A stretch of 33,631 bases of DNA from Opitutales bacterium (GCA_965197745.1 CBDANS010000001.1:1-33631); one strand, 5' to 3'; shown: positions 133 through 21,870, counted from the first letter of the stretch. Notes: generated from the letters alone by a model not told the origin. Made by a program: numbers and translations.

Positions 133-867
133 GGGTCATGCCTAGAACAGAGGTTGTCTTAAGCACATATTAAGGTTGTTACGATAGAGACTTTGATGAC
201 GATGGTTAAAGCGATATTCAGTTTCTTTGAGGTGCAGTTGGAAGATCCTGCGGGAAAGACCTTTGAATTTAGCCAATCGGAGTTTGGCAAAAGCCCAAAA
301 AGATTCAATCCCGTTAATATGGGAGTGTCCTCGGGCAAACTAGTTGCCGTTGTGATCAACACGGTGATGCTTCTTATAGCCGAGATCCACGAGGCCGTTG
401 TAAGCGCGCCAACCGTCAGAATAAAGTACGCTGTCAAAAGTAACTCTCCCTTGAATCATCGCAGGAAGAGCGGCTCTGGAGACGTTGCGTACAACCTGGG
501 TATAGACTTTCCCATTCCGCTTGAGCAACCCGAAGACGGGCACTTTCTTGAAAGCACCCCGACCTTTTTGCTCCGGAATTCTTTTGCCCCCAAAGTAGGA
601 CTTATCCATTTCTACCGATCCTATAAAAGGCGAGGCCTGCTCACATTGCTGCGACAATCGCTCCCGCAACAAGCGCAAATAACGGTTGACTGTGTTGCGA
701 TTCAGTCTTGTCAATTGGGCTATCTTCAACGCTTCCATATCCAAGCTAAAATACTTTACTAACTGCCGAAATATGGCCTCTGAAATTTTTAAACGGTGCA
801 CATACTTGTTTTTCATTTGTCTAGAATAGCTTACACATCTGTTATGTCTCTATTCTAAGCATGACCC
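133..867 (-). mobile_element. IS1595-family insertion sequence (735 bp)
   Basis: Terminal inverted repeats GGGTCATGCCTAGAACAGAG (133) and the reverse complement GGGTCATGCTTAGAATAGAG (ending 867). ATAAATTA is present on both flanks (124-131, 868-875), consistent with a ~8-bp target duplication. Confidence 0.9.
142..816 (-). pseudogene. IS1595-family DDE transposase with one in-frame TAG
   Basis: Motifs VEMDKSYFGG, VFGLLKR and YSDGWRAY. Reading through the TAG at 340-342 continues in frame as FARGHSHINGIESFWAFAKLRL...HLKETEYRFNHR to a stop at 142-144 (225 codons). Confidence 0.9.
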
Positions 868-1199
868 ATAAATTATTATCCAAGATAGACCGTTCAAAAA
901 ACCCTGGGACAAACTTGATTAAGAGATCATGAATTATAATTTCTTATTGAAAAACTTACTCCAATAAAGCCATTCGAAAAGCAGATTTTGGAAGCTGTTA
1001 ATAATTTGCGGAGACAAAATCAACGAATCTGACGGACTTTCTTGTATGGAATGCTTATTTGCGAAGTTCTAGAAAGAGAGCTAAGAACCCTTGATTCTGT
1101 CAGGCCTGAATGGGAGGATGAATATATTAAAAAGCATATTCATAAAATATCAGTGGAGATGGGGGCTGGAATAACCTATACCGATTCACAAATTGATAA

Positions 1200-2012
1200 A
1201 TGGATTTAGAAATAATTATAAGCACTCGAGAGAAGATCCTTAATGAAGCGATTGACTATTTTAAATCGGATGAGGCGACGAAAGGTATTTTCATTGCGGG
1301 TTCACTAGCTACGAGCGAATCGGACGCGTTCTCCGATATCGATTTGCGTGTTGTCGTTACCGACAATGAATTGAACCGCTTTTTCGAAAATCGATTAGAA
1401 GCACCAAAGAAATGGGGGGTGCTTCTCTTTAATGAATGGTGACCTGTTGCCCACCACTGCGTTTCCCATTTCAAACCATTCGTTAAGATGGATGTTTTTT
1501 ATTACGGAGTGTCGGAATTTGGACCATCGCCATGGTACGCATTACCTATCCGAATTGCTTATGATCCTGAAAGTATAATTAAAAAAACAATCGATCAATC
1601 AACATCCTTGTCTTTTGAAATAGATAAAGATGAAGTCAATCGCGTAATCAACAGAGGGATTGCCTACGCACATGAAGCGTACAGACGTTTAATGCGTTCA
1701 GAATTATTTTATGCAAATAATCTAATGGATAGTCTGCGAAGCTGCATAATCTTATTAGACGATGCGATAAATGGACGAAATACAGTTTCTTCTCCTTTCT
1801 CCAAATACGAACAGAGAGCTGGGCAGAAGGATCTGCAAAAGATCACTGAGTCATAAGGGCAGCTCAATAATAAATTGATGGTCAATAAGCTTAAAACACT
1901 AACGGAAGTTTATTGTAAAAAGGTAGAAATTGCACATGATAAGTTTACAATGAGCCGAGCAATTGAAGACGATCTCTCTGCGTTGGAAATTATATTTAAC
2001 GAGAAATTTTAA
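1200..2012 (+). pseudogene. Pol-beta-type nucleotidyltransferase (lincosamide/aminoglycoside NTase-like), two in-frame stops
   Basis: GS..(D)AFSDIDLRVVV motif. ORFs 1200-1442 and 1488-1856 are in the same frame, separated by TGA 1440-1442. The frame stays open past TAA 1854-1856 to TAA 2010-2012, giving a ~270-codon gene with a helical C-terminal domain. Confidence 0.7.
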
Positions 2013-2157
2013 TAATTAAGACGAAAGCAAAGATGACGAAAAGAAGGTTATCTCGTGTTATTCGATTCAAGACCCCTGTGATAGGGATTGAAAAATTGGG
2101 ATTTAAAGCATATTATTAAATAGATAAATTAGAATAACCTATAATCATAGAGGATAT

Positions 2158-2901
2158 ATGGTAACACAGGAACAGTTGAATCACTACTGGGGAAAGGGAT
2201 GGGTAGTCATCGAAGGAGTATTTGACCCTGCCGTGGTGGACGGTATTGCAAAAACAGCGACGGCGATCATTGAAAAGGAGATTAAGGATCCTGATATTCC
2301 TGCGGTGGCGGGTGAACGCTTGGAAAACGGAGAAATTATTCCCCGTAAATTAATGGAAGCATTTTTCAAACATCCCTCTTTTCAGGAATTCGTTCTTAAC
2401 GAACGGCTCAGTAAAGTAATTGAAATGTTTATCAAGGGCACACCCCTTTTGTTAGCGGACCAGATACTCATGAAGCCGCCCCGTCACGGTGGTCGCAAAC
2501 CCTACCATCAAGATAACTTTCATTTTCAATGTTTTCCCGTCGACCATGTCACCACGACATGGATCGCACTCGACGATGTAGGTGAAGATAACGGCTGTCT
2601 GCGCTATATCAGCGGATCGCACAAAGAGGGAATGATCCCTCACGTTTCCATGGAAAACGAGCCTTACAATTTAATACCTCCTGAAGATCGCGTTGATTTA
2701 TCAAGAGAGGAACTAGCTCCGGTAGGTAAAGGAGGAGTGGTCTTTCATCACGGACAGACTTTACACAGTTCGCACCGCAATCATTCCGATCGCTGGCGAA
2801 GAGGTTACGCCACCCACTGGGTAACACCCGCTGTCACCGGCAAGAATGGCAATCTGGAAAGCGCATTTTTCAACGACGATCGCTATCCACTAGCTGGTTG
2901 A
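2158..2901 (+). CDS. Phytanoyl-CoA dioxygenase (PhyH) family Fe(II)/2-oxoglutarate dioxygenase
   Basis: KPP..GG..PYHQD (HxD), WIALDD...NGCL..I.GSH and FHHG.TLH.S..N.S...RR motifs. Shine-Dalgarno-like GAGG lies upstream. Confidence 0.92.
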   Translation: MVTQEQLNHYWGKGWVVIEGVFDPAVVDGIAKTATAIIEKEIKDPDIPAVAGERLENGEIIPRKLMEAFFKHPSFQEFVLNERLSKVIEMFIKGTPLLLADQILMKPPRHGGRKPYHQDNFHFQCFPVDHVTTTWIALDDVGEDNGCLRYISGSHKEGMIPHVSMENEPYNLIPPEDRVDLSREELAPVGKGGVVFHHGQTLHSSHRNHSDRWRRGYATHWVTPAVTGKNGNLESAFFNDDRYPLAG

Positions 2902-3260
2902 TGTGAACCTTTCCGATTCGTTCATCTGCATTCAACTGGTTTCCCTAGTCGTTATTTATAAGAATTTTATGAATTTTTTTAAAATGCACTAAAAAGCATA
3001 CAAAGAAGGAAAATTTTTAGCGAGCTTAACTTTATATTCAGCGTTAGTTTTAGTTACCGGATCTAACACCGCTGCCTCATGGCTAATAAAAGGGAGTAAG
3101 TCATATCTCGATGGTCTACCTTTGTAAACGACACGGTATTGTCACTGTAATTCAAATAATCTTTTTGATTGGCCGATTGTCCCCTCGCTTAATAGGCTTT
3201 TTACTCTAAAAATCACCGGTGTGATTATCTTGTTTCTAAATTAGAAAAATCAGCATAACG

Positions 3261-4217
3261 ATGCCCAAGAGTAAGTCAAAAGCAAAGCGTCAATCTCAAT
3301 CAGAAGCAGTCCCTAGGGGATTTTCTGAGAGTGAAAGAAAAATAAGTATATTATTATACAAGATAGACCGTTCAAGAAAACCCTGGGCTCAGACTGGATT
3401 AAGTGATGACGAATTAGAATTTCTTCTAGAAGAACTTACTCCAATAAAGCGATTCGAAAATCAGACTTGGAAAACTGTTAAAAATTTGCGGAGACAAAAT
3501 CAAACAATCTGGCGGACTTTCTTGTATGGAATGCTTATTAGCTTCGTTCTAGAAAGAGAGCTAAGTGACCTTGATACTTTCTGGCCTGAATGGAAGGATG
3601 AATATTTTACTAAACGTATTCATAAATTTATAGAGATGATAAGGGATGGAAGAATAGATTATGGATATAATAAAAGTCGACGAGACCGTATAAGGACTAC
3701 TGTGGATCCATATTTTAAATGGTTGGAACCCCATACTACTGGTGAATATGCGAAAGCAATTGCTGTTAATATTAAAACGATTGAAAGGTATTTAAAATCA
3801 ATAAAAGCGAAACCTTCCACCCCTGCCCAAGGTCCATATGGTCAGCAATATTCATCTACTGTAGGACTCAAGATATTTAAAGCGTGGCTTACTAAGCCGG
3901 GTTGGCTTACGGTTGGTAAACTGAAAAAACGTTTCCCTGTTAATAATAAAAATAATAATATAACACAACCCGGTGAAGCAGATCTGCGCTGTCAATTAGG
4001 TGTGATGTTATTAGAACGCTTATACTATGATGTTGGTGACGAAAAACTGATGGAAAAATTCAGAAGCATAATCTATGACAAATTGCCGGGCAGTAAAGAA
4101 GCGTGGCTTAAACAGCGAGAACATATAAAAGTGAGAAGCAATAATTTCTGGGATCTACCTATCAAATATCAGATTTATGATATGCTACCTTTTTCACCTA
4201 TTCTACCTATTAACTGA
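3261..4217 (+). CDS. Hypothetical protein (318 aa, basic), first gene of the putative element
   Basis: Long open frame, and a decayed paralog exists at 85-1150. No recognised family. Confidence 0.7.
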   Translation: MPKSKSKAKRQSQSEAVPRGFSESERKISILLYKIDRSRKPWAQTGLSDDELEFLLEELTPIKRFENQTWKTVKNLRRQNQTIWRTFLYGMLISFVLERELSDLDTFWPEWKDEYFTKRIHKFIEMIRDGRIDYGYNKSRRDRIRTTVDPYFKWLEPHTTGEYAKAIAVNIKTIERYLKSIKAKPSTPAQGPYGQQYSSTVGLKIFKAWLTKPGWLTVGKLKKRFPVNNKNNNITQPGEADLRCQLGVMLLERLYYDVGDEKLMEKFRSIIYDKLPGSKEAWLKQREHIKVRSNNFWDLPIKYQIYDMLPFSPILPIN

Positions 4218-4373
4218 TGGGACTATCAATATTTCTACAATGAATCTTTAGTGGGGACTTTAGATACATTAGAAGAATGTATTGGATATTTTAAATATAA
4301 AGCGGGGACTTTACTTTAAGATGTCGCCTAGATGATCAAAAGTCATATCATGTCGTTAGTTTTTTAAAAACTG

Positions 4374-4589
4374 ATGGTGTGTTCATATCTAAATAATGAT
4401 CAGTTGGTGGATGCTGCAAGGCTCCTGGAAATTCTCTTCGATGAAAGGTCCCGTCCGAGCTTACGCTGGCTTCGAGAACAGCAAAGAAGGAGAACTATCC
4501 CCTATATCAAGATAGGGCATCTGGTAAGATTTAATCCCGCTCAAGTAAGGGAGGCCCTAGAGGAGAGAAATACGGTAGTGCCCCGTTAA
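4374..4589 (+). CDS. Excisionase/AlpA-like small HTH DNA-binding protein
   Basis: 71 aa with the pattern SLRWLREQQRRRTIPYIKIGHLVRFNPAQVREAL, typical of HTH_17/Xis proteins. Confidence 0.8.
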   Translation: MVCSYLNNDQLVDAARLLEILFDERSRPSLRWLREQQRRRTIPYIKIGHLVRFNPAQVREALEERNTVVPR

Positions 4590-4603
4590 AGGGATAATTT
4601 AAA

Positions 4604-5402
4604 ATGTCAGAAGATCAAATAAAAGAAAATAACGAGAAATATATCCAGGTCCCCTTATGTCTTTTGACTTATCAAGGGAATGGTGTGAACGATATCGTAA
4701 GAGGGATGTTAGCAATTGGCATGCAAAGGAACCGTTTGTATTTATCTAATCTACCTGAAGATGAACTCTATCTGCCTGAGGAAAATGATTTACCGCATGA
4801 TTTTGATCTCAACAACCGCGAGCATCGATTACTTTGCGCTGCGGGAAAGATCTGCGGGAAAGATGTCAGGGATAAAATTAAGATCAACTTCAATGGTAAT
4901 TATTGAAAAAGATATAAGGAAATATCAGGCATATATCGATGATTTTGAGATAAAATTTGGAACTGACGCCTTAGTCCGACATAAGACAGCTTTGTGTTTT
5001 GATGTAAGAGACAAAGGTGCGCCCAATCCTCGTGAATTTGCTATTCTTTCAGCTATTTATTCCTGCCTGGGTCAAAGTAGTTACCGCCGAATCACCAGTG
5101 CCGAAATCCAGTGCCGTGCAACCGGTTGCCGTTCAAAAGAGATTTTTGACACTTTTGAAGAGAGACCGGAGCCTTATTCAATTAAACAAATACGAAAGAC
5201 TGTCGAAGATCTTTTTTTAAAAGATTTTTTTGGCAGATTTACTTATCGGTATCGTGAGACCTATTATTCTCACAAACTTGGTGAAGATGAGTTAAGAGAT
5301 AAAGTTTTCGAAAAGAGAACATCCCTTATGAGGAAGAAAAAATCCATCCAGGCTAAGGATGAGGCAATAAATAAAAGACTAATAAAATTAAAAATGGGAT
5401 AG
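4604..5402 (+). pseudogene. Putative winged-helix/replication initiator-like protein, apparently split by a frameshift near 4860-4905
   Basis: Overlapping ORFs 4604-4906 and 4716-5402. The C-terminal part has an HTH-plus-wing-like pattern (REFAILSAIYS...SIKQIRKTVEDL...FFGRFTY..ETYYSH). It lies between the Xis-like gene and the iteron array. Function is inferred. Confidence 0.45.
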
Positions 5403-5492
5403 AATCTTGCCCCCCCCTTTTAATGAACCAAACGCGACAACTTATAAATAACAGAAACAATAATTTCGTGAAATTCTTTATCCATTTTAGGT

Positions 5493-5610
5493 GGGCAACT
5501 TGAGGGCAACATAGGGGCAACATAGGGGCAAGTTGAGGGCAACTTTAATAGAGATATTCTTAATAGAGATTGTACGAATAAAGATACTATGAATAAAGAT
5601 AGATTTAATA
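5493..5610 (+). repeat. Iteron-like array (5 x 11 bp GGGCAAcwtrr) followed by 4 x 15 bp AT-rich repeats (kAATArAGAT-n5): candidate replication origin
   Basis: GGGCAACTTGA, GGGCAACATAG, GGGCAACATAG, GGGCAAGTTGA, GGGCAACTTTA at 5493-5547. Then TAATAGAGATATTCT, TAATAGAGATTGTAC, GAATAAAGATACTAT, GAATAAAGATAGATT at 5546-5605. Confidence 0.8.
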
Positions 5611-5867
5611 CTAAGGGTTGTCGTGGCCGACAACTGCGAAAAAAATTTATTGATGTGCTAGCAATTAATGAAATCAAAGAAACCTGGGTTGAGTATTGTG
5701 AAAACTTTAAACCAACAGATAAAGAAATAAGAATACGACTATCACTGATCGCAGACTATTTAAGAGAAGGCGGTGAAATGGACGCGATTGTCGAGGCCCT
5801 GGAGGCCGATTATGAAGTCGATATTATAGAGCTTTGTTGTGGTATAGATCTTAAGGGATTTTTATGA
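5589..5867 (+). CDS. Hypothetical protein (92 aa, acidic C-terminus)
   Basis: ORF with protein-like composition; its start lies within the AT-rich repeats. Confidence 0.4.
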   Translation: MNKDRFNTKGCRGRQLRKKFIDVLAINEIKETWVEYCENFKPTDKEIRIRLSLIADYLREGGEMDAIVEALEADYEVDIIELCCGIDLKGFL

Positions 5868-5976
5868 CTGCTAAATTATTCTTTTTACCCGAGTGGTAAA
5901 TATTTGAAATCAAATAGAAACAATAAATGCTGCATAAAAAGATAGGTTACCATGAATTCATTGAGCAAAGGCTTTT

Positions 5977-6133
5977 AAGGGGCCTGAGTGCCTCGAGAAA
6001 GGCCGTTTGAAACTTAAGCTAGGGATGGGGGGGTTCATAACAAAGAGTGATCGTTCATTCAGAAGCAAATTTAAGTGGGGTGATTTTAAAATATTTTTGC
6101 TGCCAAGCGTTGCTCGATTATAAGTATATTTTC
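5977..6133 (+). repeat. Non-coding direct repeat, copy 1 (~160 bp)
   Basis: Shares 'gcctcgagaaaggccgtttg', a G-run, 'ttcataac', 'gtgatcgttcatt', 'agcaaatttaag' and 'ttttaaaatattttt' with 6387-6560. Confidence 0.85.
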
Positions 6134-6165
6134 TGATGATTAAAAACATTAGAATAAAAACCTCA

Positions 6166-6193
6166 AGGTAACCAAAGTCTAATTTGGTTACCT
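6166..6193. promoter_or_regulatory. Perfect 11-6-11 inverted repeat
   Basis: AGGTAACCAAA-gtctaa-TTTGGTTACCT. Confidence 0.55.
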
Positions 6194-6386
6194 ACATGCT
6201 TTTTATCTGTGAACATTTTAATATTTAAAATGAGCTGTCTCAAGCAGACACGGACAACATTTTTAAAAGACAGATTTTAATGCGAGGAAATTTTCAAATA
6301 GATAATGCGCGTTTTCGTACACTCGTTTGAAAGTTTTCGAGGTCGGAAGGATTTTAAGCTTCGAAGCTTGATTTGATTTGCCCGTG

Positions 6387-6560
6387 AAGGGGTCTGAGAG
6401 CCTCGAGAAAGGCCGTTTGCATCTTAAGGCAAGATGGGGGGGGGGGGGGGGGGGAGGGTGTTTCATAACGAAGGGTGATCGTTCATTTTAGAGCAAATTT
6501 AAGCGTAGTTTTTAAAATATTTTTTGCTGTTTTAGAGTTGCCCTTTATAAATTTATTTTC
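6387..6560 (+). repeat. Non-coding direct repeat, copy 2 (contains a G19 run)
   Basis: Aligns with 5977-6133; the G7 of copy 1 is G19 here (6436-6454). Confidence 0.85.
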
Positions 6561-6767
6561 CGGCGAGTAAATCGATAGTATGACAGGTGGCCTGTCTGCT
6601 GATCGCACCCCCCCCTGTAACACGATCTGCTCCTAAAAGCGCGAGTTCAAGCGGTGGTGCGCGAAGGTGAACGCTCAAGGCATGCCCTCGTCCAGAGAAG
6701 GTGACAACCCTAAATCACCGGTCGTAAGGGTGTGGCAAGCGTATGTCAACAAGAGCTTAATTAGGGT

Positions 6768-7250
6768 TTTAAACTGGGGCGTACTCCTTAATTATCGTTA
6801 GTTTAAGACGGTTAGAAATTTTATGTGTAACTTTAACATGTTGATAACTAAATACTTAAAAAACTACTAGACATAATAACAATTGTGCGGTTCACCTTCT
6901 AAGACCTCATCTCCAGTCCGTCCTCTTTTGGTCCGCGCACACCGGCACTGATAACGGCCTGCTCAGGCAACCTTCAAACTACCAGTCTCTCTTTTTTATG
7001 TGTCCACAGGTTGGCCTTCATTGCGGACAAGCTAAAACAACCCTTAATCGATGGGCAGATCGATAAGGGAGGATCGTTTCGATCTTCTCTCCCCCTTTTA
7101 AGTGTGTCCACAGTTCACCGTTGTACAACGGTAAACGACAGACATAAAAAATGACAATATTGACAGCATCAATTTGGCGAAAAAAAACCGCCCCCCCCAT
7201 GTCTATCTCTCAGATTGAGGAAGGTTCTGAAAATAGCGCCGAAACAGTTA
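6768..7250. repeat. Conserved non-coding block A (contains a dif-like site and hairpins)
   Basis: Colinear block-wise similarity to 9741-10360, including an identical 27-mer CCCTTAATCGATGGGCAGATCGATAAG (7041-7067 and 10115-10141). Confidence 0.85.
6866..6893 (-). other. XerC/XerD dif-like recombination site 1
   Basis: Minus strand GAACCGCACAA-TTGTTA-TTATGTCTAGT. The 11-6-11 layout matches E. coli dif (GGTGCGCATAA-TGTATA-TTATGTTAAAT) at 7/11 and 8/11 in the arms. Confidence 0.75.
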
Positions 7251-7398
7251 CCCTCAAAATAGAAATCTGTCATGAGGAACTGTAAAATGGATTTGCCCAG
7301 GAGCTATCTAAGCAGCGTGCAGGTTCACTACTTAGTTAAGGGTATGAGATTTTTTCGGCTAGTCATATGACCACAGGACCACGTATAAAGTTACTCTT

Positions 7399-7647
7399 AT
7401 GGTTATCGTTCTTATCTGCTTTCTTCTGGTCTTTACTTTGATTGGTCTATCCTTGGTCTGGCAACACCGTGGCACCAGACAAAACGCAAGCGTCAACCAC
7501 AACCGGAGGGAGGCGCAGAGTTGTCGCGAAAATATCATCTCTCAAGAAGATACCATTAACCTCCGGGACAAATCGCAGCTTGAACTATTCGACGATGCGG
7601 AGCTCTCCCGTGTGGCGAGGGAAAGTGCTATTTATAGGAGGAAATAA
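7399..7647 (+). CDS. Small N-terminally membrane-anchored hypothetical protein
   Basis: Hydrophobic first ~22 aa followed by a charged tail. Confidence 0.4.
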   Translation: MVIVLICFLLVFTLIGLSLVWQHRGTRQNASVNHNRREAQSCRENIISQEDTINLRDKSQLELFDDAELSRVARESAIYRRK

Positions 7648-7910
7648 ATATCAATAGCTAGACACATGCAACGGCAGGGGTAACGCAAAGTACAAGCTGG
7701 GCCGATACACGATGCTTCCAGTTTTTAATTCAAGGCGATCCCAAGGCCAATCAACGGTTTTCTTCTATACTCGAATACAATCTATCAAAGAATTGGATGA
7801 TAAAAAAGAAAAGTGGTCACGACCACTACGGATAAATTTCCGATTATTGGTATATCCTATAGCAATTTTGTCATAGCCTATATTCACCATGGATCAAATC
7901 TGTGTTAAAT

Positions 7911-8399
7911 CTAACTAGTTATTCTTTCTAATGCTAAACGCTCATGATCTTTAATTTTTCTTAATTCACTTTCAGGGACATTTGTTTCGCAGCATGAAAA
8001 TCTAACTAGTGTATTATGAAGCTCTTTATTAAATATATATTCTGCACGTTTTCTATGAAAATTTGAAGTTACAATAATCAAGTCCGTTACCCTACGCTTT
8101 TCTATTATTGGTTTTGAAAGTTGAACATCCTCAATTGTGTTTGAACTTTCGATCCACTTTAAAATCTTTTCTTTTGGAACTCCCTTTGATAGCAATTGCT
8201 GTGTAGTATAATAACCATGCGGCTTTGGAGAAATATTGAAATGGTTACCGAATCCTCCAGTTGGGAGTATAAAATATTTTGGATTGTGATAATATTCTTT
8301 GATTAAATGCTTTAAGCGTTCTTGGGCAATAATAGAGAGAGTTCCGTCTATATCATTTGGAGCTCCTAATAGTAGAATAATCCCTTTATCTGTATACAT
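7911..8399 (-). CDS. YdcF/DUF218 (SanA/ElyC-like) family protein
   Basis: IILLLG...R....; TGG; E..NTIED; IIVTSNFH..RA..IF motifs. The IS3 end lies 1 bp upstream of the ATG. Confidence 0.88.
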   Translation of the reverse strand: MYTDKGIILLLGAPNDIDGTLSIIAQERLKHLIKEYYHNPKYFILPTGGFGNHFNISPKPHGYYTTQQLLSKGVPKEKILKWIESSNTIEDVQLSKPIIEKRRVTDLIIVTSNFHRKRAEYIFNKELHNTLVRFSCCETNVPESELRKIKDHERLALERITS

Positions 8400-8408
8400 T
8401 TGGTCGGG

Positions 8409-9387
8409 TTACACAAACTGGTCCACTGGGAGAGTTAGTCTGGAAAGGTTAATGTTGAAGTTAAGTTGGTAGAGGAAGTCAAGACTTGGGCGCAATGAGG
8501 GCGTAGCCCGAATGGAGCCCGAGCCTTCGGTCTTGAGGTTTTCAGCGAAACGTTGTGGAGTAATATTGCCGAGGCTGCGGTGGGGTCGAACATGATTGTA
8601 AAGCCAGCGCCAATCTTCGATCACCACGCGGGCTTCGGTCAAAGTCCACAGTTGTTCACGATTTAGACACTCCTCGCGAAAACGGGCATGGAACGATTCG
8701 ATGTATCCGTTCTGCCAAGGGCTTCCTGGTTCGATATAGAGGGTATTGATTTTCATCGCAGTTAGCCAGGCTCTCAATTCACTTCCAATAAATGGCTTCG
8801 CATGTCGTCGCTTCGCTCCTCGGAACCGATCCATTGTCGCTGCGAATATATTTTGGCGGCCCATGAGGGTCGAGCAGTTTTTGCATGACCCCGCGCACCT
8901 TCTCCGCATTGATATGGCGATCGACATGGATCACCCGACACTCGCGGGTGTACTCGTCAAGGACGGTCAGCATTTTGAGATTCCCACCGCGGACCGTCTT
9001 ATCGTGGATAAAGTCCCAGGTCCAAACATGGTCGGGATGTTCGGCCTTCGTCGGCAGCCCGGTGGAGACACCCCTGCGCCGGCGTCTTGGCTTGCGTGGG
9101 GGGATCGCCAGACCCAGTTCACGTCGCAGACCTTGCACGAGCCGTTTACCCACCTGCCAGCCTTCGTCCTTCAACAGCTTCGTGATCTTCGGATAGCCCC
9201 ACCTTGCGTATTGCCGTGATAACCGCCTTACTGCCGCCTTCAGTTTCGTTAGCCAGGCATCCGGATACTTCGCCCGATATGCATAGGTGGAGCGGTGCAG
9301 GTGAAAGTATCGGCACGCTCCACGTATCGAACACTGGCCCCGGGCCACAAGTCTCTCTGCCACTTGCCGCTTGTGCCCAGGGCTTAC
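8409..9387 (-). pseudogene. IS3 OrfB DDE transposase, frameshifted by an insert after DNGS
   Basis: WTWDF, LTVLDEYTREC and RSDNGS in one frame; PGSPWQNGYIESF..RFREECL and YNHVRPHRSLG in another. Confidence 0.9.
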
Positions 9388-9406
9388 TACCGAGCATAAG
9401 CGACAT

Positions 9407-9673
9407 CTACCATTTTTTTTCGAGCGTCTCCTGCAGAATCTCTATCCCCAGCAGCTTGTCCGCCAGCATCCGTTTTAACCGCGCGTTCTCCTTCTCGAGT
9501 TCCTTCATCCGCTTGGCCTGGTTGACATCAATCATCCCAAACTCACGTTTCCAGCGGTGGAAGGTCTGTTCGCTTATGTTGTTCTCGCGGCATACTTCCA
9601 GGATCGTTTTCCCTTTGTCTGCCTGCCGCAGCATCCGTATCTTCTCTTCGGTTGTATAGCTTTTGCCTTTCAT
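9407..9673 (-). CDS. IS3 OrfA (HTH_Tnp_1)
   Basis: YTTEEKI..LRQ...VCRENNISEQTFHRWK...KELEKENARLKRMLAD. Confidence 0.92.
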   Translation of the reverse strand: MKGKSYTTEEKIRMLRQADKGKTILEVCRENNISEQTFHRWKREFGMIDVNQAKRMKELEKENARLKRMLADKLLGIEILQETLEKKW

Positions 9674-9740
9674 TGTCTGAGTCCTTTCTAGGTGTCCCAG
9701 ACTAACTTTTCAAGTGGACCAGTTTTCGTGGTCACGACCA

Positions 9741-10360
9741 GGATTTAAATGAGTGCTACTCCTTAATTTATGTTATTTTAAGACCGTTAGGAATTTTATA
9801 TTTAAATTAAATATATTGGTTATCAATCACTTACAAAACTAATAGACATAATAAAGATTGTGCGGTTCACTCTCCAAGGTCTCCTTCACCATGTGAATCC
9901 GCGATCTGCTTTCGTAACAATATCCCAGTGGATTTAATTTTCCCTTAACGTCCCTTTTGTCCACACACACTAGCGCCGATAACGGTATTCTGGGCGACCA
10001 GGTGGGATAGTTTGTCATGTTGTGATCAGTAAAGTGTGTTGAGCCAGCTCGACAGTCATGTTCTTTTTTTAAGTGTTGCCACCTGGAAGCCCTCATTGCG
10101 GTAACCTGCAACATCCCTTAATCGATGGGCAGATCGATAAGAGAGGACCGTGTTGATCCTCCCACTCCTTTTTTAAGTGTTTCCACCTAACACCATAAGA
10201 TCCCGTTTTCACCATGGTGCACATGAAACAACAAACAGAAGGAAAGTTATAAATTTTATATTGTCCGCGTCATGTCGCATAAATCTAGCGCAAAAACAAC
10301 ACCCCCTTTGTCCGTCTCTCAGATTCAGGAAGCTTCGGTAAACAACGACGAACAATAACC
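9741..10360. repeat. Conserved non-coding block B (contains an IHF-like site, a dif-like site and hairpins)
   Basis: Paralog of 6768-7250 with several insertions. TATCAATCACTTA (9821-9833) matches the IHF consensus WATCAANNNNTTR. Confidence 0.85.
9841..9868 (-). other. XerC/XerD dif-like recombination site 2
   Basis: Minus strand GAACCGCACAA-TCTTTA-TTATGTCTATT. The XerC arm is identical to site 1, the XerD arm has 1 mismatch, and the spacer differs. Confidence 0.75.
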
Positions 10361-10592
10361 AGCCGGTGGTCTACCACGAAGATCTGATCTTCGAAATATC
10401 CCGATTGATTGCTCTGACCATAGATGCCATCAGCCGCACTACGTTTACCAGCCCATAGTCGAACAGGAGGAGGTCAACCATTGGAACAAAACGAAACGAG
10501 TAAGGATCCTCAATGACTACAACGTCAGAAATCTAAGTATTTGAGGCTTCAACATCGAACATGATAAAAAGAAATACCTTGTGATATAATCC

Positions 10593-13064
10593 TTATTCAT
10601 AGCGCAATGTTTCAATCGGATCAACACGTGCAGCCACTCGCGCCGGTAACCAGGCTGCAAATAATCCCACGAGTGCTATTAATGCGATTACCGTGCTATA
10701 AACAGTCAAATCATTGGGAGACACATCTTCAATAAGACTGGATAAAATTCGGGAAAGGGCCAGGGCCAAGAGCAATCCCAAAAATATACCCGCACCTATT
10801 TGAATACCGCTCTGTTTAATTACCATAGCAATAATGTTGCGCGGTTCCGCGCCCATTGCTTTACGGATTCCCATTTCCTGGGTACGTTGATTAACCGAAA
10901 AAGACATGACACCATACACGCCAATAGCCGCTAATATAAAAGCAGCGATGCCAAAAACAACAAAAAGACCGGGAATGAACTTAGTTCCTCTGGATATTTT
11001 ATCAATATAACCTTGAACTGTATTAATTTCATAAAGGGGTTGATTGGGATTTAATTTTTGCAACTCGGTACGCACTGCGGGCAACCAGTTCATGGGATCA
11101 TCTCCCGTACCCCGTAAAATGAATGTCATATGGCGTGTCGTAATATTTTGATTAAATACGGTCTCTTGGGCCATGGGGACATAAAATCCTGAGCCATCGT
11201 TATTCACTGTATTAAAACCCTCCATCTGTAAATCCGGTGCAACACCGACAACCGTTAGCCAAGGCTTCTCACCCGGCCCCTTCGCTTTAAACATTTTACC
11301 GATTGGACTCTGATTCGGCCAATACTTTTCCGCAAAAATAGTATTAACAATCGCTACCTGCTGAGAATCGGCAATGTCCGTATGATTGAATGCTCTTCCC
11401 TCTAAAATAGAGACTCCAAAGACATTGAAGTAGCCATCAGAAATACCTGCAAATTGAGCACGCGGATAGTCATCATCTGACGCATAACTCACCCCATCAA
11501 TTATAATAATCCGGGGAACTGCTATCGGTTCATTATGTGAAGAGGTCAACGCGACTGCCTCAATACCCGGAACAACCCTGAGGTTATTGAGCAATGTATT
11601 AAGAAATGAGATTTTATCACTATCTTCAGGATAGTCCGTGTCAAATAATGCCGTCCGTGCCTGTAATATAGCTTCCGGGTTATAGGGTAATTCGAACTGG
11701 TTTAGCTTATACGACATTTTTAACATCATACCCGAGCCTATAAGGAGCGCGCAGGACATGGCAATTTGCACAATGACCAAAAACTTACTGAATCGACCCG
11801 AACGCAAATTAGAAGAGGTGCGAGTGTTTTCCTTTAATAATTGATTTACATCCGTTCTCGATGCCTGAAGCGCGGGGACAAGTCCCGATATTATACCGGT
11901 TGCAAAGGTAACACCGATGACAAAAATAAACACCGATCCATCCAGTTCAAAATTTATCCAGGAGGGAAAATTTCCTCCCTCGAACATGACCAAAAGATAA
12001 TTCCACAAAAACTCTAAAGATCTATGCGCGATGAGAAAACCACCCACCGCACCGATTATCGAAATGATCAGGCTCTCGGTCAGTATTTGTGTGATTAATC
12101 TTTTCCTCTTTGCACCTAATGCACTGCGTATAGCGAGCTCCTTGCTGCGCAGAATAGATCGGGCAAAAAGTAGGTTTGCAACATTAGAACAGGCAATGAG
12201 AAGCACCATGAATGCGGCCACGAGCATAGTCGTGAATAATATATTTATCTCATTGCCCATAATTCCCTTAATATAAGGCTTAATATCGAGTGAATTATAG
12301 CCCTCGTTGCTTTCTGGATATTCCTGTTCCAGACGACTGGCTATGCCGTTTAGCTCGGTTAATGCTTCTTCAAGTGTAACGTCATCTTTCAACCTTCCAA
12401 ATACCGTCAATTTACCACTATTCTTTCTTGTCGTTGACGAAAAATCTTTGAGGCGCGGAATCCAAAGGTCCGCACCAAATGGAAACTTATAATCCTGTGA
12501 CATCACACCCACAATGTTGTGCGATACATTATTTAAGAGGACAGACCGACCAATTATATCGACATCTCCATAAAAATCCTTCTGCCAGATTCCATAACTG
12601 ATGATCGCTACCTTATCAGCACCCGGCAGGTCTTCATCTTTAAAAAATCCGCGACCTAAGAGAGGTTTGGCGCGAAGCAATTCTAGAAAATTAGTGGAGA
12701 TTGAACAACCATTATAACGCCGCGCGTAATCATCACCTTTTATATTTATCGTAGAATTGTCGGAACCACTTAAGCCCTCAAAAGTGGTTTGCTGTTCCTG
12801 AAAGTCATTGAGGTCATAGGCATTTATAAACAAATCAATGTTAAAATCTTGCGAGTTACTTTTAACGTTAGCCCATCTTAAAAGGAAAAGGCGATCCGAT
12901 TTATCAAAGGGCAGTCCCTTGATAATAAAACCATTTACGATACTGAACATAGTTACTACGAGGCCAATGCCGATGGACAAGGCAATTACCGCTATGACCG
13001 AAACACCTATATTCTGTCTCAACATCCGCAGTCCAAAAATTATATCCTGAAGTATGTTTCGCAT
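10593..13064 (-). CDS. ABC transporter permease, duplicated MacB_PCD/FtsX (ADOP-type)
   Basis: QDI.FGLRML, LLIACSNVANLL, RSKELAIRSALGA, QRTQEMGIRKAMGA, PARVAARVDP..LRYE. Confidence 0.95.
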   Translation of the reverse strand: MRNILQDIIFGLRMLRQNIGVSVIAVIALSIGIGLVVTMFSIVNGFIIKGLPFDKSDRLFLLRWANVKSNSQDFNIDLFINAYDLNDFQEQQTTFEGLSGSDNSTINIKGDDYARRYNGCSISTNFLELLRAKPLLGRGFFKDEDLPGADKVAIISYGIWQKDFYGDVDIIGRSVLLNNVSHNIVGVMSQDYKFPFGADLWIPRLKDFSSTTRKNSGKLTVFGRLKDDVTLEEALTELNGIASRLEQEYPESNEGYNSLDIKPYIKGIMGNEINILFTTMLVAAFMVLLIACSNVANLLFARSILRSKELAIRSALGAKRKRLITQILTESLIISIIGAVGGFLIAHRSLEFLWNYLLVMFEGGNFPSWINFELDGSVFIFVIGVTFATGIISGLVPALQASRTDVNQLLKENTRTSSNLRSGRFSKFLVIVQIAMSCALLIGSGMMLKMSYKLNQFELPYNPEAILQARTALFDTDYPEDSDKISFLNTLLNNLRVVPGIEAVALTSSHNEPIAVPRIIIIDGVSYASDDDYPRAQFAGISDGYFNVFGVSILEGRAFNHTDIADSQQVAIVNTIFAEKYWPNQSPIGKMFKAKGPGEKPWLTVVGVAPDLQMEGFNTVNNDGSGFYVPMAQETVFNQNITTRHMTFILRGTGDDPMNWLPAVRTELQKLNPNQPLYEINTVQGYIDKISRGTKFIPGLFVVFGIAAFILAAIGVYGVMSFSVNQRTQEMGIRKAMGAEPRNIIAMVIKQSGIQIGAGIFLGLLLALALSRILSSLIEDVSPNDLTVYSTVIALIALVGLFAAWLPARVAARVDPIETLRYE

Positions 13065-13095
13065 CTTTCTCTGTGGTTAATTATTTTGGGGTGGA

Positions 13096-14586
13096 CTAAG
13101 GTATGTTCACCGCGAATTTCTCCAAGGTGGTGCCAACTTGCTGATCGTATTCGGCGAGAGATTTATTGTAATCAATAATAGCTTGCAGTTCACGAATCTC
13201 AGCCTCTGCCAGATCATCCTGTAACCTTAAGACGATAAAGGTGGTACTCGTTCCTGCCTGAAGCTTCTTTTGTTCTGCAGCGAGGCTTTTCTCCGATAAA
13301 GCGCGTGCGTCTTTAGCGACCTTGATCCGTTTCCAGTTCGTATTGATGCGACCCGCAGCATTATCCAGGTTTATTAATATATCCTGTTTAAATTGCTTTA
13401 GTGTGATTTCCTGCTGATTTTTTCTTAAATAAGCCGCTGCTTTCTGTGATCTTCCGAATCGATTGGGGAAAGGCACATTAAAGTTTATACCCAGCCGATA
13501 AGCCTGATTTTCATTTTCCGTTAATCTGTCAAAGCTGCTCTCAAAACTATCATCTCGTCCTTGCCAACCATATCCTCCGATAAGGTCTAAATTGGGCAAA
13601 GCTTGATGGCTGTTGAGTGTTATTTCGATTTCGCTCGTTTCAAGATAGAGAACCGCTCGACGATAATCTGGTCTTATCTCTAATGCCTTTTGATAATCCT
13701 CTTCTAAATTGATAGTGATTTCCTGAGGTTGATGGGGTGGTAGAATGGATATTCTTTTCTTCAGCACACCCACTATGCCATCGTATAACAATTGCTTGAG
13801 TCGATTCTCCTGATCCAGCATGAAGCGTTCTGCAAGCAAAACGCGCTCTTCCCTTAATGCTACTTCTGCTTCAGCCTGAACAACATCCAATGGGGCCATT
13901 GATCCAATCTCAATCCGTCGAATATTATCCTCTTTTAATTTCAGTGCTAAGTCACGACTGCGTTTAGCAACGTCCAAATTCTGGGACGCGAAATAGAAAT
14001 CATTGTAAGCAAATATTGTTCTTGAAATTATGGAAATAACCACGCGCTTAAACTCCCACTCGGATAACTCTAATCCTTTTTTCGCAATATTAATTCTGGC
14101 TTTATTGAAACCGGGTCCGAATCCTCTAAGTATGGGTTGGGTTAAACTAAATCCGGCAAAAGTGTAATATTCATCCGTAAAATCATTAAATGTCCCTCTG
14201 CGATTATCACTATCAATGCCGATCTCATAGTTCGTTCCCCAGGGAAGGACTCCATTAAAACCAATTGATAAGGTATCATCCTCCAGAGTGAATGATTCCG
14301 GGGCATCGAAATTTAAAGGATCGATCAACTGCGGGTTGTCTTCCTGCCGCCGCAGGTACTTTGAATCAAATGTAGGATCGAATATGCCTTTTTCCCCCGT
14401 CAGCTCGTGGGCCGCAATATCCGGAGAAATCTGCTCAACCTGGATCGTGAAGTTCTTTGCCAGGGCTTGCTCAATTGCCTGAGATAGATTCAGTTTCTCT
14501 ACAACTGAATCTTCACCATAAGCCATCTGTAGAATTACAAAATGTGAGCCAATGATAAGTGTTCTGAAATATTTAATTACATTCAT
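13096..14586 (-). CDS. TolC-family outer membrane efflux protein
   Basis: Signal peptide, LNLSQAIEQAL..N, SLTQPILRGFG, ALPNLDL, and a C-terminal AEQKKLQAG.ST...VL..Q repeat. Confidence 0.93.
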   Translation of the reverse strand: MNVIKYFRTLIIGSHFVILQMAYGEDSVVEKLNLSQAIEQALAKNFTIQVEQISPDIAAHELTGEKGIFDPTFDSKYLRRQEDNPQLIDPLNFDAPESFTLEDDTLSIGFNGVLPWGTNYEIGIDSDNRRGTFNDFTDEYYTFAGFSLTQPILRGFGPGFNKARINIAKKGLELSEWEFKRVVISIISRTIFAYNDFYFASQNLDVAKRSRDLALKLKEDNIRRIEIGSMAPLDVVQAEAEVALREERVLLAERFMLDQENRLKQLLYDGIVGVLKKRISILPPHQPQEITINLEEDYQKALEIRPDYRRAVLYLETSEIEITLNSHQALPNLDLIGGYGWQGRDDSFESSFDRLTENENQAYRLGINFNVPFPNRFGRSQKAAAYLRKNQQEITLKQFKQDILINLDNAAGRINTNWKRIKVAKDARALSEKSLAAEQKKLQAGTSTTFIVLRLQDDLAEAEIRELQAIIDYNKSLAEYDQQVGTTLEKFAVNIP

Positions 14587-14629
14587 AACGACGGGTATAT
14601 TAAATTTTATTGTGGTTCAATTATTCCAG

Positions 14630-17119
14630 CTATCCATAGCGCAATGCTTCCATGGGTTCTACGCGTGAAGCATTGCGCGCCGGTATCCAGATGGATAATA
14701 ATCCCACTAAGATGATCACCCCGATAACTGTTAAGTAGACCGAAAGGTCATAAGGTGAAAAGTTTGCATAGGTACTGTGCAGAATTCTTGCTAGGGCAAT
14801 TGACAACAGTAATCCTATGCATAATCCCGTGCCAATTTGCCTGCTACTCTGCTTGAAAATCATTGCAAGGATATTGCGTGGGTCGGCACCCAATGCTTTG
14901 CGTACTCCCATTTCCTGGGTTCGCTGATTGACCGAAAATGACATGACACCATAGAGACCAATTGAAGCAAGAAATGTAGCGGCAATACCAAAGGCAATAA
15001 ACAGTCCGGTGAAAAACTTACGACCTCGAGATCTATCATCGATCGCACTTTGTACTGTTTTTATATCATATAGCGGTTGATTAGGATTTAACTTCTGAAC
15101 CTCGCTTCTGACTGTTGGCAACCAGTTCATGGGATCACGACCTAATCCCTTTAAAACAAGAGTCATGTATCGAGCGGTTACATTTCCTGAAAAATAGAGA
15201 AAAGCACTCTTTTGCGTCATCGGGACATAAAAACCAGGAAATCTTTCCTGATCATCCCAATTAAAACCTTGCATTTGGAGGTCCGGGGCAACACCAACTA
15301 TCGTCAACCATGGCATACCATCAGGATGATATAATTTGAATCGTTTACCAATTGCACTTTGTTTTGGCCAGTATCGTTCAGCAAAATCTGTGTTCACAAT
15401 AGCTACCTGCTGTGAGTCAGTAATATCGGTATCATAAAACGGTCTTCCTTCTAAAATGGACGCATTAAAGACATCGTAGTAATCTATTGATACACCGGCA
15501 AAACAAGTCCACGGATAATCATTCTTTGTTACATAATTTTCACCGTCTACTATGATCTTCTTCCAATCAGCGAATGGCTCGCTGTGTGTCGTGGTTAATG
15601 CAACAGCCTCAATGCCCGGTATGGTTTTCAAGTTGCGTAATAGTGATTTAAAAAATGAAAGCTTATCGCTATTCGTAGGATACTCTGTATCGTGTAAGAC
15701 TGTACGCGCCTGAAAGATGGTTCCCGGATCATAAGGTAAGTCGAACCTGTTTAGATTATTCACCATTTTTATCATTAATCCCGCTCCAATAAGAAGGACA
15801 CAGCACAATGCGATCTGTACAATAACCAGGCATTTACTGAATCGACCCACACGCAAACTTGAGGATGTGCGTGTATCTTCCTTCAGTAATTGATTTACAT
15901 CCGTCTTTGATGCTTTGAACGCTGGAACAATTCCCGAAATAATCCCAGTAAGGAGCGTTAGACCAATTATAAATATAAGAACCACCCAATCCATCTCGAA
16001 ATTAACCCATGATGGAATGGAGTACCATGATGTCATTAAAATTACTTTAAAATAATTCCATAAATAATCTAGTGTAAACTTAGCCAGCAAGATGCCACCC
16101 AATGCTCCCATAATCGATATTAACAGGCTCTCTGTTAATATTTGAATGATGATACGTTTTCTTGGAGCACCGATGGCACTTCGAATCGCCAGTTCTTTGC
16201 TTCGCAAGGTCGACCGGGCAAGAAGCAGATTAGCCACATTTCCACAGGTAATGAGTAGTACCAGAAAAACAGCTCCGAGCATCGTTAATAATCTATTTAC
16301 CATCCAATCTCCCATAAACACTTTAGTGTAGGGTTCGATATCCAAAGCATTTAATCCCTCATTGCTTTCTGGATAGGCCTGTTCCAGGCGAGCTGCTATG
16401 CCGTTAAATTCTGTTAATGTTTCATCTACATTGACACCGTCTTTCAATCTGCCAAAAACAAATTTGAAATTTCTACTATTTATTCTTGTTTTTAAGGGAA
16501 AATCATTCCGATAGGGTATCCACAAATCAGCACTAAGTGGGAATTTAAAATCCTGGGGCATTACCCCAACTATAGTGCGAGGTGCTCCATTTAATAGCAT
16601 TGTCCTGCCAATAATATTAGTATCACCGTAAAAATCTTTCTGCCAGATCCCGTAACTGATAATCACTACAGGATCTGTGCCGGGCAGCTCTTCATCATTA
16701 AAAAACCGCCTTCCCAGTAATGGTCTGACGCGAAGCACATCAAGAAAATTAGCCGAGATATAGACGCCAGAACAACGGCGAGCGTAGTCATCACCTTTTA
16801 TATTAACTGAGTCTTCGTCGTATCCGGATAAACCCTCAAATGTCGTCTGCTGTTCTTTGAAATCAATTAGGTCATGGGTATTTATAAGGATATCATTCCA
16901 ATCAAAATTTTGATCACCTCTAGCCCATCTAAAACTAAAAATGCGTTCAGGTTCGTCAAAGGGAAGGCCTTTAATGAGAAACCCATTTACAATACTGAAT
17001 ACTGTCGCAACCAATCCAATGCCGATTGATAAGACAAACACAGCAAGTATCGAAATCCCCATGTTCTGTTTCAACATGCGTAGCCCGAACACCATATCCT
17101 GAAGGATATTTCGCATCAT
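14630..17119 (-). CDS. ABC transporter permease, duplicated MacB_PCD/FtsX (ADOP-type)
   Basis: Same motifs as 10593-13064; a clear paralog. Confidence 0.95.
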   Translation of the reverse strand: MMRNILQDMVFGLRMLKQNMGISILAVFVLSIGIGLVATVFSIVNGFLIKGLPFDEPERIFSFRWARGDQNFDWNDILINTHDLIDFKEQQTTFEGLSGYDEDSVNIKGDDYARRCSGVYISANFLDVLRVRPLLGRRFFNDEELPGTDPVVIISYGIWQKDFYGDTNIIGRTMLLNGAPRTIVGVMPQDFKFPLSADLWIPYRNDFPLKTRINSRNFKFVFGRLKDGVNVDETLTEFNGIAARLEQAYPESNEGLNALDIEPYTKVFMGDWMVNRLLTMLGAVFLVLLITCGNVANLLLARSTLRSKELAIRSAIGAPRKRIIIQILTESLLISIMGALGGILLAKFTLDYLWNYFKVILMTSWYSIPSWVNFEMDWVVLIFIIGLTLLTGIISGIVPAFKASKTDVNQLLKEDTRTSSSLRVGRFSKCLVIVQIALCCVLLIGAGLMIKMVNNLNRFDLPYDPGTIFQARTVLHDTEYPTNSDKLSFFKSLLRNLKTIPGIEAVALTTTHSEPFADWKKIIVDGENYVTKNDYPWTCFAGVSIDYYDVFNASILEGRPFYDTDITDSQQVAIVNTDFAERYWPKQSAIGKRFKLYHPDGMPWLTIVGVAPDLQMQGFNWDDQERFPGFYVPMTQKSAFLYFSGNVTARYMTLVLKGLGRDPMNWLPTVRSEVQKLNPNQPLYDIKTVQSAIDDRSRGRKFFTGLFIAFGIAATFLASIGLYGVMSFSVNQRTQEMGVRKALGADPRNILAMIFKQSSRQIGTGLCIGLLLSIALARILHSTYANFSPYDLSVYLTVIGVIILVGLLSIWIPARNASRVEPMEALRYG

Positions 17120-17137
17120 CTGGGGTAGTGGATTATG

Positions 17138-17842: not shown

Positions 17843-17874
17843 GGTATTTCAGGGGTAATGGTTATTTGACGCAT

Positions 17875-19134: not shown

Positions 19135-19155
19135 TGTAAATATTAAATAAAAAAA

Positions 19156-21858: not shown

Positions 21859-21870
21859 GGGCTGCTTAGT

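Follow-up and report, generated by a model that had tools for sequence, protein, structure and literature searches.

Putative integrated plasmid-like elements carrying mimics of the host dif site in one family of Opitutales

The stretch of DNA analysed here (hereafter the window) is the whole of contig C1, 33,631 bp in length with a GC content of 42.5%, in the genome of an Opitutales bacterium (GCA_965197745.1; G000), of which the assembly comprises 7 contigs and 4.45 Mb and is dense in insertion sequence (IS) elements. We see about an even chance that positions 3150-7290 of the window represent one copy, in partial decay, of a group of plasmid-like elements that have become integrated, each equipped with a Xer resolution-type site that mimics the host's own dif. 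The elements are confined to a single family of Opitutales (Verrucomicrobiota), and the dif mimic is probably a Xer recombination site that the elements have borrowed, rather than the mark of a classical dif-integrating element. The original prediction, made from the window alone, had pictured an integrase-less, replicon-like element tied to tandem dif-like sites, namely a candidate new family of integrative mobile elements exploiting Xer recombination (IMEXs). This interpretation is partly supported by our comparisons with two relatives (G001 and G002), with the 4 genomes of the family and with an order-wide set of 151 genomes.

The members of the family share a common layout: a front end, one to three repeats (A repeats) often bracketing a gene for a Cache-domain protein, and a module (B) centred on an exact copy of both dif arms with a free spacer. 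The front end consists of either the gene F7, a small Xis-like helix-turn-helix (HTH) gene, F9, iterons and F10, or a tyrosine integrase, a Xis-like HTH gene and a DnaD- or O-like initiator. The window copy belongs to the former type, and its parts, together with those of a second B module, are as follows.

3150-3260, plus strand: left boundary of the element, ~110 nt ahead of F7
3261-4217, plus strand: F7, orphan protein of 318 aa
4374-4589, plus strand: F8, small Xis/AlpA-like HTH protein (HTH_17, E 0.003; phrog_1840 excisionase, E 2e-6)
4604-5402, plus strand: F9, the 'Rep-like' gene, in two frames (4604-4906 and 4716-5402)
5493-5543, plus strand: five 11-nt iterons, GGGCAAC-N4, followed by short AT-rich repeats to 5588
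5589-5867, plus strand: F10, orphan protein of 92 aa, conserved in all three copies of the gene set in G000
5961-6147 and 6371-6579, plus strand: two A repeats of ~190 nt, detected by nhmmer
6746-6865, plus strand: L, the left flank of the core, with near-invariant blocks such as TAAGACCGTTAGGAAT
6866-6893, plus strand: dif mimic 1, 28 nt (XerD-type arm ACTAGACATAA, spacer TAACAA, XerC-type arm TTGTGCGGTTC)
6894-7290, plus strand: R1, the right flank, with two ~104-nt units each ending in TTTTTTAAGTGTGTCCACAG and with hairpin-plus-T-run motifs
9744-10345, plus strand: second, diverged B module (L-type left flank, mimic 2, right flank of class R3)
9841-9868, plus strand: dif mimic 2, AATAGACATAA-TAAAGA-TTGTGCGGTTC

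The core of the mimics, GACATAAT-N5-TTGTGCGG, occurs 11 times in G000 and 10 times in the two relatives. When the 4.45-Mb genome was searched for ACATAAT-N5-TTGTGCGG with up to 2 mismatches, 21 matches were obtained: 11 exact ones, all within copies of the repeat module, one with a single mismatch and nine with two. The sole 1-mismatch match, AGACATAA-TGTATA-TTGTGCGAA at C7:1785408-1785430, coincides with the maximum of the cumulative GC skew of contig C7 (~1.79 Mb) and is conserved as a single copy in each of the family's four genomes, and the motif (up to 1 mismatch) was found in 102 of the 151 genomes of the order, nearly always once. This site is therefore the true host dif, and the motif is the dif of the order, for which we obtained the consensus GACATAA-T(A/G)T(A/T/C)T(A)-TTGTGCG(A/T/C); the order-wide spacers are rich in AT (e.g., TATATA, TGTATA and TATTTA), and TTGTGCG is followed by A, T or C. 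Kono et al. (PMC3025954) predicted dif in 3 of 3 Verrucomicrobia, Opitutus terrae among them. Mimic 1 shares with the true dif AGACATAA plus the first T of the spacer, and TTGTGCG, at the same spacing, and the spacers of the mimics have just that first T in common with dif. Such likeness is far beyond chance, and the sites mimic the host's own dif; their description as dif-like in the original prediction is borne out, with more force than the window by itself could show. As for the recombinases, the genome encodes a XerD (TIGR02225, 334 bits, above the cut-off), by similarity to which the nearest named relatives are metagenome-assembled genomes labelled Opitutales or Puniceicoccaceae (Verrucomicrobiota), and a XerC-like paralogue scoring 305 bits, below the 335 cut-off.

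The motif is multicopy in this family alone, with 12 matches in G000, 4 in G001 and 9 in G002, dif counted in. Additional matches in genomes of other families (G052, G076, G095, G115 and G116) were rejected as copies of the module, being unrelated sequences without B-like character. Locating the terminus, a check that had been proposed with the original prediction, placed the true dif on a contig other than that of the window, and none of the cores lies at dif: the nearest of the 11 cores in G000 is 119 kb off, and in G001 and G002 each of the 10 cores is separated from dif by 0.7 Mb or more, or sits on a different contig. Integration at dif by Xer-type recombination, as originally envisaged, is at odds with these positions. 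The second site that had been claimed ~3 kb further on was confirmed, since mimics 1 and 2 are in direct orientation and 2975 nt apart.

The A repeats and B make up a non-coding module of ~0.9 kb, present in 11 copies in G000, in which B alone accounts for ~500 nt. Over a set of 21 cores (11 from G000, 3 from G001 and 7 from G002), the 16 specified arm positions were 100% identical, the five free spacer positions averaged 52% identity with 14 variants, and the 120-nt left flank was homologous in every case, at 69-98% identity and 74% on average; no other 8+8 window in that flank rose above 87%. The 120 nt to the right fall into three classes, R1 (13 cores), R2 (4 cores) and R3 (4 cores), and the identity between classes, 54-66%, is that of the background. 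Homology extends no further than the outer edge of the XerC-type arm, and between the loci C7_12 and C6_177 it ends at +135, just beyond the arm. A common left flank, three classes of right flank and a break at the edge of the arm point to the core as the joining point, so that the core behaves as a recombination junction at which different left and right partners are put together.

Within the rest of the module, the A repeats number 20 copies in G000 (nhmmer), all in B loci and 2-3 per locus, and their 3' end carries TTGCTG-N16-TATAAn. Between the two A repeats of the window there is a perfect hairpin (6166-6193), in the position that a Cache-domain gene occupies at most other loci. The second A repeat contains a poly-G run (6436-6462) of ~26 G with one A, where other copies have few G; the length of this run may be unreliable, because public contigs break there. 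An RNAalifold analysis of the 13 R1-type copies gave no covariation (term -0.14; 3 of 57 pairs compensatory), a search of the entire window against Rfam (E up to 1) returned one sub-threshold match, outside the element, and a scan for promoters and terminators gave counts at the level of shuffled sequence. With neither covariation nor an Rfam match, the conservation of the module looks like that of protein-binding DNA. We also noticed that R1 (6894-7120 and the 12 other copies) contains inverted, slightly expanded look-alikes of both core arms, namely CCGCGCACA ~45 nt past the XerC-type arm and, further on, TTATGTGTCCA or AAGTGTGTC(C/T)A. In single strand these could fold back onto the core (RNAalifold pairs 139-145/188-194 and 123-130/365-372), an arrangement which we take to resemble the folded attP of CTXphi.

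All the components originally described for the front end, i.e., the order of genes, the iterons, the AT-rich array, the repeats and the dif-like site, are present in the sequence. F7 appears to be all-helical, with a basic N-terminus and a conserved HTH-like stretch (EYAxAIAVNxKTIERFLKSI), and has no family in Pfam, PHROGs, NCBIfam or PADLOC. We recovered 10 clusters of F7 homologues in 5.8e9 proteins and 14 matches to its profile in 1.84e9 representatives, and the remote profile matches had no Pfam domain above cut-offs; no relative was found in the genome collection or in the JGI metagenome collection, and the best score in the Protein Atlas, 0.77, was not usable. Profile searches of the PDB with F7 and F9 gave nothing below E 0.03, and the AlphaFold2 models of the two proteins (mean predicted local distance difference test scores of 53.6 and 58.4, respectively) were too poor for a fold search. 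F7, to which neither fold nor family can be assigned, could conceivably be a novel recombinase. The HTH_17 match of F8 is weak. Between paralogues, dN/dS was 0.25 for F8, 0.36 for F9 and 0.3-0.6 for F10.

F9 had been introduced as a winged-helix or Rep-like gene. Its place beside the iterons is as described; the reading frame is disrupted in the window, and no match to a Rep family was obtained. The frameshift, at ~4851-4858, coincides with a perfect 13-nt tandem duplication (4839-4851 / 4852-4864), and F9 is intact in the copies on C5 and C6, where it encodes 258-259 aa. No relative was found in Pfam, PHROGs, NCBIfam or the PDB, and the 22 homologue clusters recovered from 5.8e9 proteins are all at least 68% identical; for several of these clusters the longest contig measures just 3-8.6 kb. 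The hhalign comparisons revealed no relation between F9 and the initiators of the integrase-type sister elements, nor between F7 and a 322-aa open reading frame (ORF) in the same position, and no homologue of F7 or F9 was found in the PLSDB plasmid collection. The iterons adjoin F9 in all three copies in G000, and their number varies among the copies (5, 6 and 3); the motif is confined to the three F7-type elements, with 2 two-mismatch matches elsewhere.

G000 contains three copies of the F7-F10 gene set, ~81% identical, on C1, at C5:44.4-41.1 kb and at C6:1506.4-1509.7 kb, and G002 contains one. All four intact F7 copies lie 3.6-5 kb upstream of a core, in agreement with the association of F7 homologues and dif-like sites that had been anticipated. 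Homology begins at the left boundary in the three G000 copies and the G002 copy; further left, the flanks of the three G000 copies are unrelated to one another, as judged from alignment of the left junctions and the extents of BLAST matches. No second dif-like site (up to 2 mismatches) was found at the left boundary of the three G000 copies, where just CAAATAAT, with 6 of the 8 positions of the XerD-type arm, is present. The elements therefore carry a dif-type site at their right end only, rather than at both ends as expected of the original scheme. Two candidates for the termini of the element were rejected as being at chance level: one 14-nt direct repeat (3164-3177 / 7437-7450, 86%), and a word resembling TTTGATTGGCC with which the A repeats open. 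The decayed copy of the first gene that had been reported upstream was recovered (direct repeats D1, D3 and D9; tblastn): the left end of the element and F7 are represented at 22-98 and 869-1174 (plus strand), with 63% identity over residues 38-126 and 3 stops, and the copy is split by a fragment of an IS1595-type transposase (ORF 340-816, minus strand; PF12762).

The absence of integrase, capsid and conjugation genes from the window was likewise borne out. A scan of 30 ORFs yielded DDE transposases only, none of the 14 matches to PF00589 in G000 is on C1, a tRNA scan of the window was empty, and no integrase-like gene was found within ~5-7 kb upstream of the C5 and C6 paralogues. The contig starts within a repeat and ends in IS-like sequence. 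The possibility that C1 is itself a plasmid was rejected, as (i) the orthologous stretch of G002 lies inside a 2.16-Mb contig and (ii) C1 ends in repeats, and we treat C1 as a putative chromosomal fragment.

The module is not restricted to elements that lack an integrase. At 4 of the 11 loci in G000, the A+B module ends elements with their own tyrosine integrase (F5, 380-430 aa), located 5-8 kb upstream of the core, and these integrases are 31-90% identical to one another. The elements further comprise a Xis-like gene of HTH_17/MerR type, a DnaD-like (phrog_2514, E 2e-11) or O-like protein, in one case a DnaC-like loader (phrog_50, E 4e-28), in the same position as F9, and a Cache-domain gene between the A repeats. 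The dif-like site can hardly be a stand-in for a missing integrase, as had been supposed, when the same module ends integrase-bearing loci. The remaining four cores of G000 have IS elements or other genes upstream. A tRNA-Asp gene lies beside one integrase-bearing locus, and a 22/23-nt copy of its 3' end, without a tRNA gene, lies 66.6 kb downstream, so that the B module at this locus is internal to a larger island; this tRNA-Asp 3' repeat was the only att-type direct repeat detected around the four integrase-bearing loci. The island thus outlined, of ~66 kb at C7:5258-71961, has at its left end the integrase, the DnaD-like and DnaC-like genes, a Cache gene and the B module. The Cache-only proteins themselves (~325 aa; dCache_2/sCache_2) form a family of at least 10 copies (tblastn), nearly all beside A repeats (e.g., C6:1503.8-1506.2 kb and C6:178.3-180.6 kb near B copies); some of the genes are in tandem, and one pair is 100% identical between C5 and C7.

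A second type of recombinase gene is also associated with a core. int409 encodes a 409-aa tyrosine recombinase with HxxR...Y motifs, which was missed by PF00589 at E 0.001, and was found in G000 at C5:6565-7868 (L036), with an orthologue in G002 (C1:239.3 kb; L035) and a paralogue at C7:1464784-1466010 (L037). On C5 of G000 and in the G002 orthologue, int409 is followed, at a distance of 50 nt, by a degenerate B-like core, GAACATAAT-AACGC-TTGTACAG, with an R3-like flank; at the C7 paralogue an IS3 element takes the place of the core.

Parts of the elements have evidently travelled. Positions 1245-7118 of C1 align to G002, and identity reaches 96-100% from ~1645 to 4440, a block that comprises PhyH, F7 and the beginning of F8; at their dif loci, G000 and G002 are about 70% identical. 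The difference shows that the block 1645-4440 moved recently between lineages. Beside this block, the stretch from F9 to B is just 62-88% identical to G002, so that the copies are mosaics. A further stretch of G000, C6:549308-552055, is 99.2% identical to G002 and represents another case of recent exchange; the exchanged blocks carry PhyH and F7 together with another PhyH and a gene for a 2-hydroxyacid dehydrogenase. A search for empty sites was fruitless in G001 and G002, as these genomes are too diverged and rearranged. In four public sequencing runs (short Logan contigs), the joints observed (e.g., 7041 to 10115 and 3069 to 1) fit paralogous copies.

If the elements are indeed plasmid-like, they would be present or recent small replicons able to reside in the chromosome. 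Host XerC and XerD would bind the mimic core, and the core would resolve multimers of a circular form, much as cer and psi do, while L (and R1) would provide the accessory sequence for the reaction. It would not be used for integration at the chromosomal dif, and the distinct spacers would limit recombination both with dif and between copies. Occasional intermolecular recombination between copies of the site may nevertheless take place, and would explain the direct sites of the window, the tandem cores of G001 (592 nt apart) and the exchange of right flanks. In this sense the 'stack of Xer-dependent elements' of the original prediction survives as possible recombination between the elements' own sites, and not as a pile-up at dif.

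Several findings weigh against this proposal. All of the copies observed lie in the chromosome, and neither PLSDB nor the contigs of the public runs yielded a circular or plasmid form. F9 could be placed in no Rep family, and usable models were obtained for neither F7 nor F9, which leaves the iterons and the gene position as the grounds for the word 'replicon'. The invariant flank L lies on the side of the XerD-type arm; in cer it is the XerC side that carries the accessory sequences. The copy in the window has suffered damage, with its frameshifted F9, no Cache gene and IS elements nearby, and dN/dS of F7 between paralogues is 0.6-0.85. The copies also swap parts by homologous recombination, as seen in the alternation of 62-88% and 96-100% stretches, and therefore not every change of flank needs Xer. 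Finally, the degenerate B-like core behind int409 in two genomes raises the possibility that a recombinase encoded by the elements may act on cores.

One alternative is that the F7-type elements are true IMEXs, which insert by XerC/D at a chromosomal or resident dif-like (secondary) site and pile up in tandem. The exact mimicry of dif, the lack of an integrase on C1 or near the two paralogues, the direct pairs of cores in the window and in G001, the break of homology at the core and the defined left boundary common to three copies whose flanks are unrelated are all as such an element would have them, and a precedent outside phages is offered by LME-1 of Legionella (PMC9765430). Nevertheless, we regard this alternative as unlikely, as (i) not one of 21 cores is at dif, (ii) the left end of three copies has no second dif-like site, CAAATAAT matching an arm at 6 of 8 positions only, (iii) the B module also ends 4 of 11 loci having their own integrase, and (iv) the spacers share just the first T with dif. 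The core could instead be the attachment or crossover site of tyrosine recombinases encoded by the elements (int409 or F5), the likeness to dif stemming from a recombinase that targets the Xer system or descends from it. int409, with its HxxR...Y motifs, does have a B-like core 50 nt on in both G000 and G002, and F5 integrases precede 4 of 11 cores. This explanation appears quite improbable, given that the integrase-adjacent cores alone are degenerate (1-3 arm mismatches) and all 21 perfect cores are without an adjacent recombinase. Moreover, for 7 of the 11 G000 cores the 10 kb upstream contain no integrase, the arms are invariant in spite of the divergence among F5 integrases, and the arms equal the order-wide dif arms.

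It is also conceivable that A+B represents a non-coding RNA gene, a purely regulatory region or an inert relic, in which the core has no present role in recombination. The conservation of ~0.9 kb of non-coding DNA in 11 copies, the TTGCTG-N16-TATAAn at the 3' end of the A repeats, the hairpin-plus-T-run motifs of R1 and the old, damaged look of the elements would all suit this explanation. We consider it very unlikely, since no Rfam match at E up to 1 and no covariation were found, promoters and terminators were no more frequent than in shuffled sequence, and a relic would not hold 16 of 16 arm positions in 21 copies beside DNA of 74% identity. A bolder idea is attractive to speculate upon, albeit we judge it improbable: the B modules would constitute a chromosomal, Xer-driven system of module exchange, in which host XerC/D would act on a dozen dispersed mimics insulated by their own spacers, and the F7-type elements would be a new class of integrase-less, Xer-dependent elements that insert at such secondary sites instead of dif. 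If this is the case, the system would join front ends (the F7 replicon, the F5 elements and int409) to back ends (R1, R2 and R3 with the genes behind them), and would amount to a pdif-like or integron-like platform outside plasmids, in Verrucomicrobia.

Returning to the plasmid-like elements that we favour, their relationship to known systems can be described as follows. IMEXs occupy the chromosomal dif, with a dif-type site to either side of them, as in the CTX, VGJ and TLC elements. Like the IMEXs (CTXphi, VGJphi, TLCphi, the gonococcal genetic island, LME-1 and gokushovirus prophages), the F7-type copies lack a recognisable integrase of their own and carry a mimic of the dif arms with a spacer unlike that of dif; unlike them, the copies are dispersed, have the site at one end, share the module with integrase-bearing elements and possess no phage genes. 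Pfam scans of the window at E up to 0.01 gave no DUF3653/XafT-like protein. The resolution sites cer (ColE1) and psi (pSC101) consist of a XerC/XerD core with ~180 bp of accessory sequence on one side. The present elements resemble them in having one core per replicon, conserved arms, a variable spacer, flanks that could be accessory and a replicon-like neighbourhood, but differ in that every copy is in the chromosome, the replication protein cannot be assigned to a known family, and the conserved flank is on the side of the XerD-type arm (21 of 21 cores), the other side being conserved, as R1, in 13 of 21. Iteron-type theta plasmids have tandem iterons beside a small gene for a DNA-binding protein, as found here with the 11-nt iterons; the difference is that F9 shows no match to a Rep family. 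With their integrase, Xis-like HTH and DnaD/DnaC-like genes, the sister elements, one of them at tRNA-Asp, resemble integrative plasmid-like islands at tRNA genes; the F7-type copies do not, having neither a recognisable integrase nor a tRNA. The pdif modules of Acinetobacter reside on plasmids and are bounded by sites in opposite orientation. They share with our elements the many Xer-type sites, the variable spacers and the breaks of homology at the sites (PMC5790767, PMC7399989). In contrast to pdif, the sites reported here are chromosomal, each is embedded in a 0.9-kb conserved module, and those of the window are direct repeats.

The remainder of the window holds genes of other kinds, listed below in order.

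1200-1442 and 1488-1856, plus strand: nucleotidyltransferase, as two ORFs of 80 and 122 aa (Pfam)
2158-2901, plus strand: PhyH dioxygenase (Pfam)
7399-7647, plus strand: small ORF between the two dif mimics
7911-8399, minus strand: DUF218 gene between the two dif mimics
~8409-9727, minus strand: IS3-family insertion with a frameshifted transposase (inverted repeats 8415-8443 and 9697-9725)
10593-22206, minus strand: PadR regulator, three MacB/FtsX-type permeases, ABC ATPase, HlyD-type adaptor and outer-membrane factor

The nucleotidyltransferase gene upstream of PhyH is probably broken, and both genes are part of the block common to C1 and G002. From 10345 onward, C1 matches at 93% identity the DNA behind the B copy at C7:951.6 kb, where a duplicate of the exporter cluster (C7:952-958 kb) maintains this identity over at least 10345-16761 of the window. 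The ABC exporter had been regarded as cargo of the stack; it is no such cargo, but a 93%-identical duplicate of the cluster behind another B copy on C7. Apart from the elements, two adjacent ORFs of 425 and 396 aa at 30241-32827 (minus strand) correspond to the N- and C-terminal halves of the PADLOC candidate PDC-S06 (E 6e-117 and 4e-146), and represent either a split gene or a two-gene form.

Xer recombination is known to be hijacked by elements landing in dif, by resolution sites of plasmids and by the plasmid modules of Acinetobacter, and the present case differs from all three: a perfect mimic of dif is retained at ectopic chromosomal positions, with as many as 11 copies in a genome. In the literature that we searched, no Xer-exploiting element or ectopic dif mimic has been described in Verrucomicrobia. 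The practical yield of the analysis is a consensus for the dif of Opitutales, an orphan gene set (F7, F9 and F10) associated with the site, and a hypothesis on recombination that is inexpensive to test. The case is a variation on a known theme, i.e., mobile elements borrowing Xer sites, in an unstudied lineage. It raises the question of how a cell tolerates many functional-looking dif arms far from the terminus; one possible answer is that the diversity of the spacers insulates these ectopic arms.

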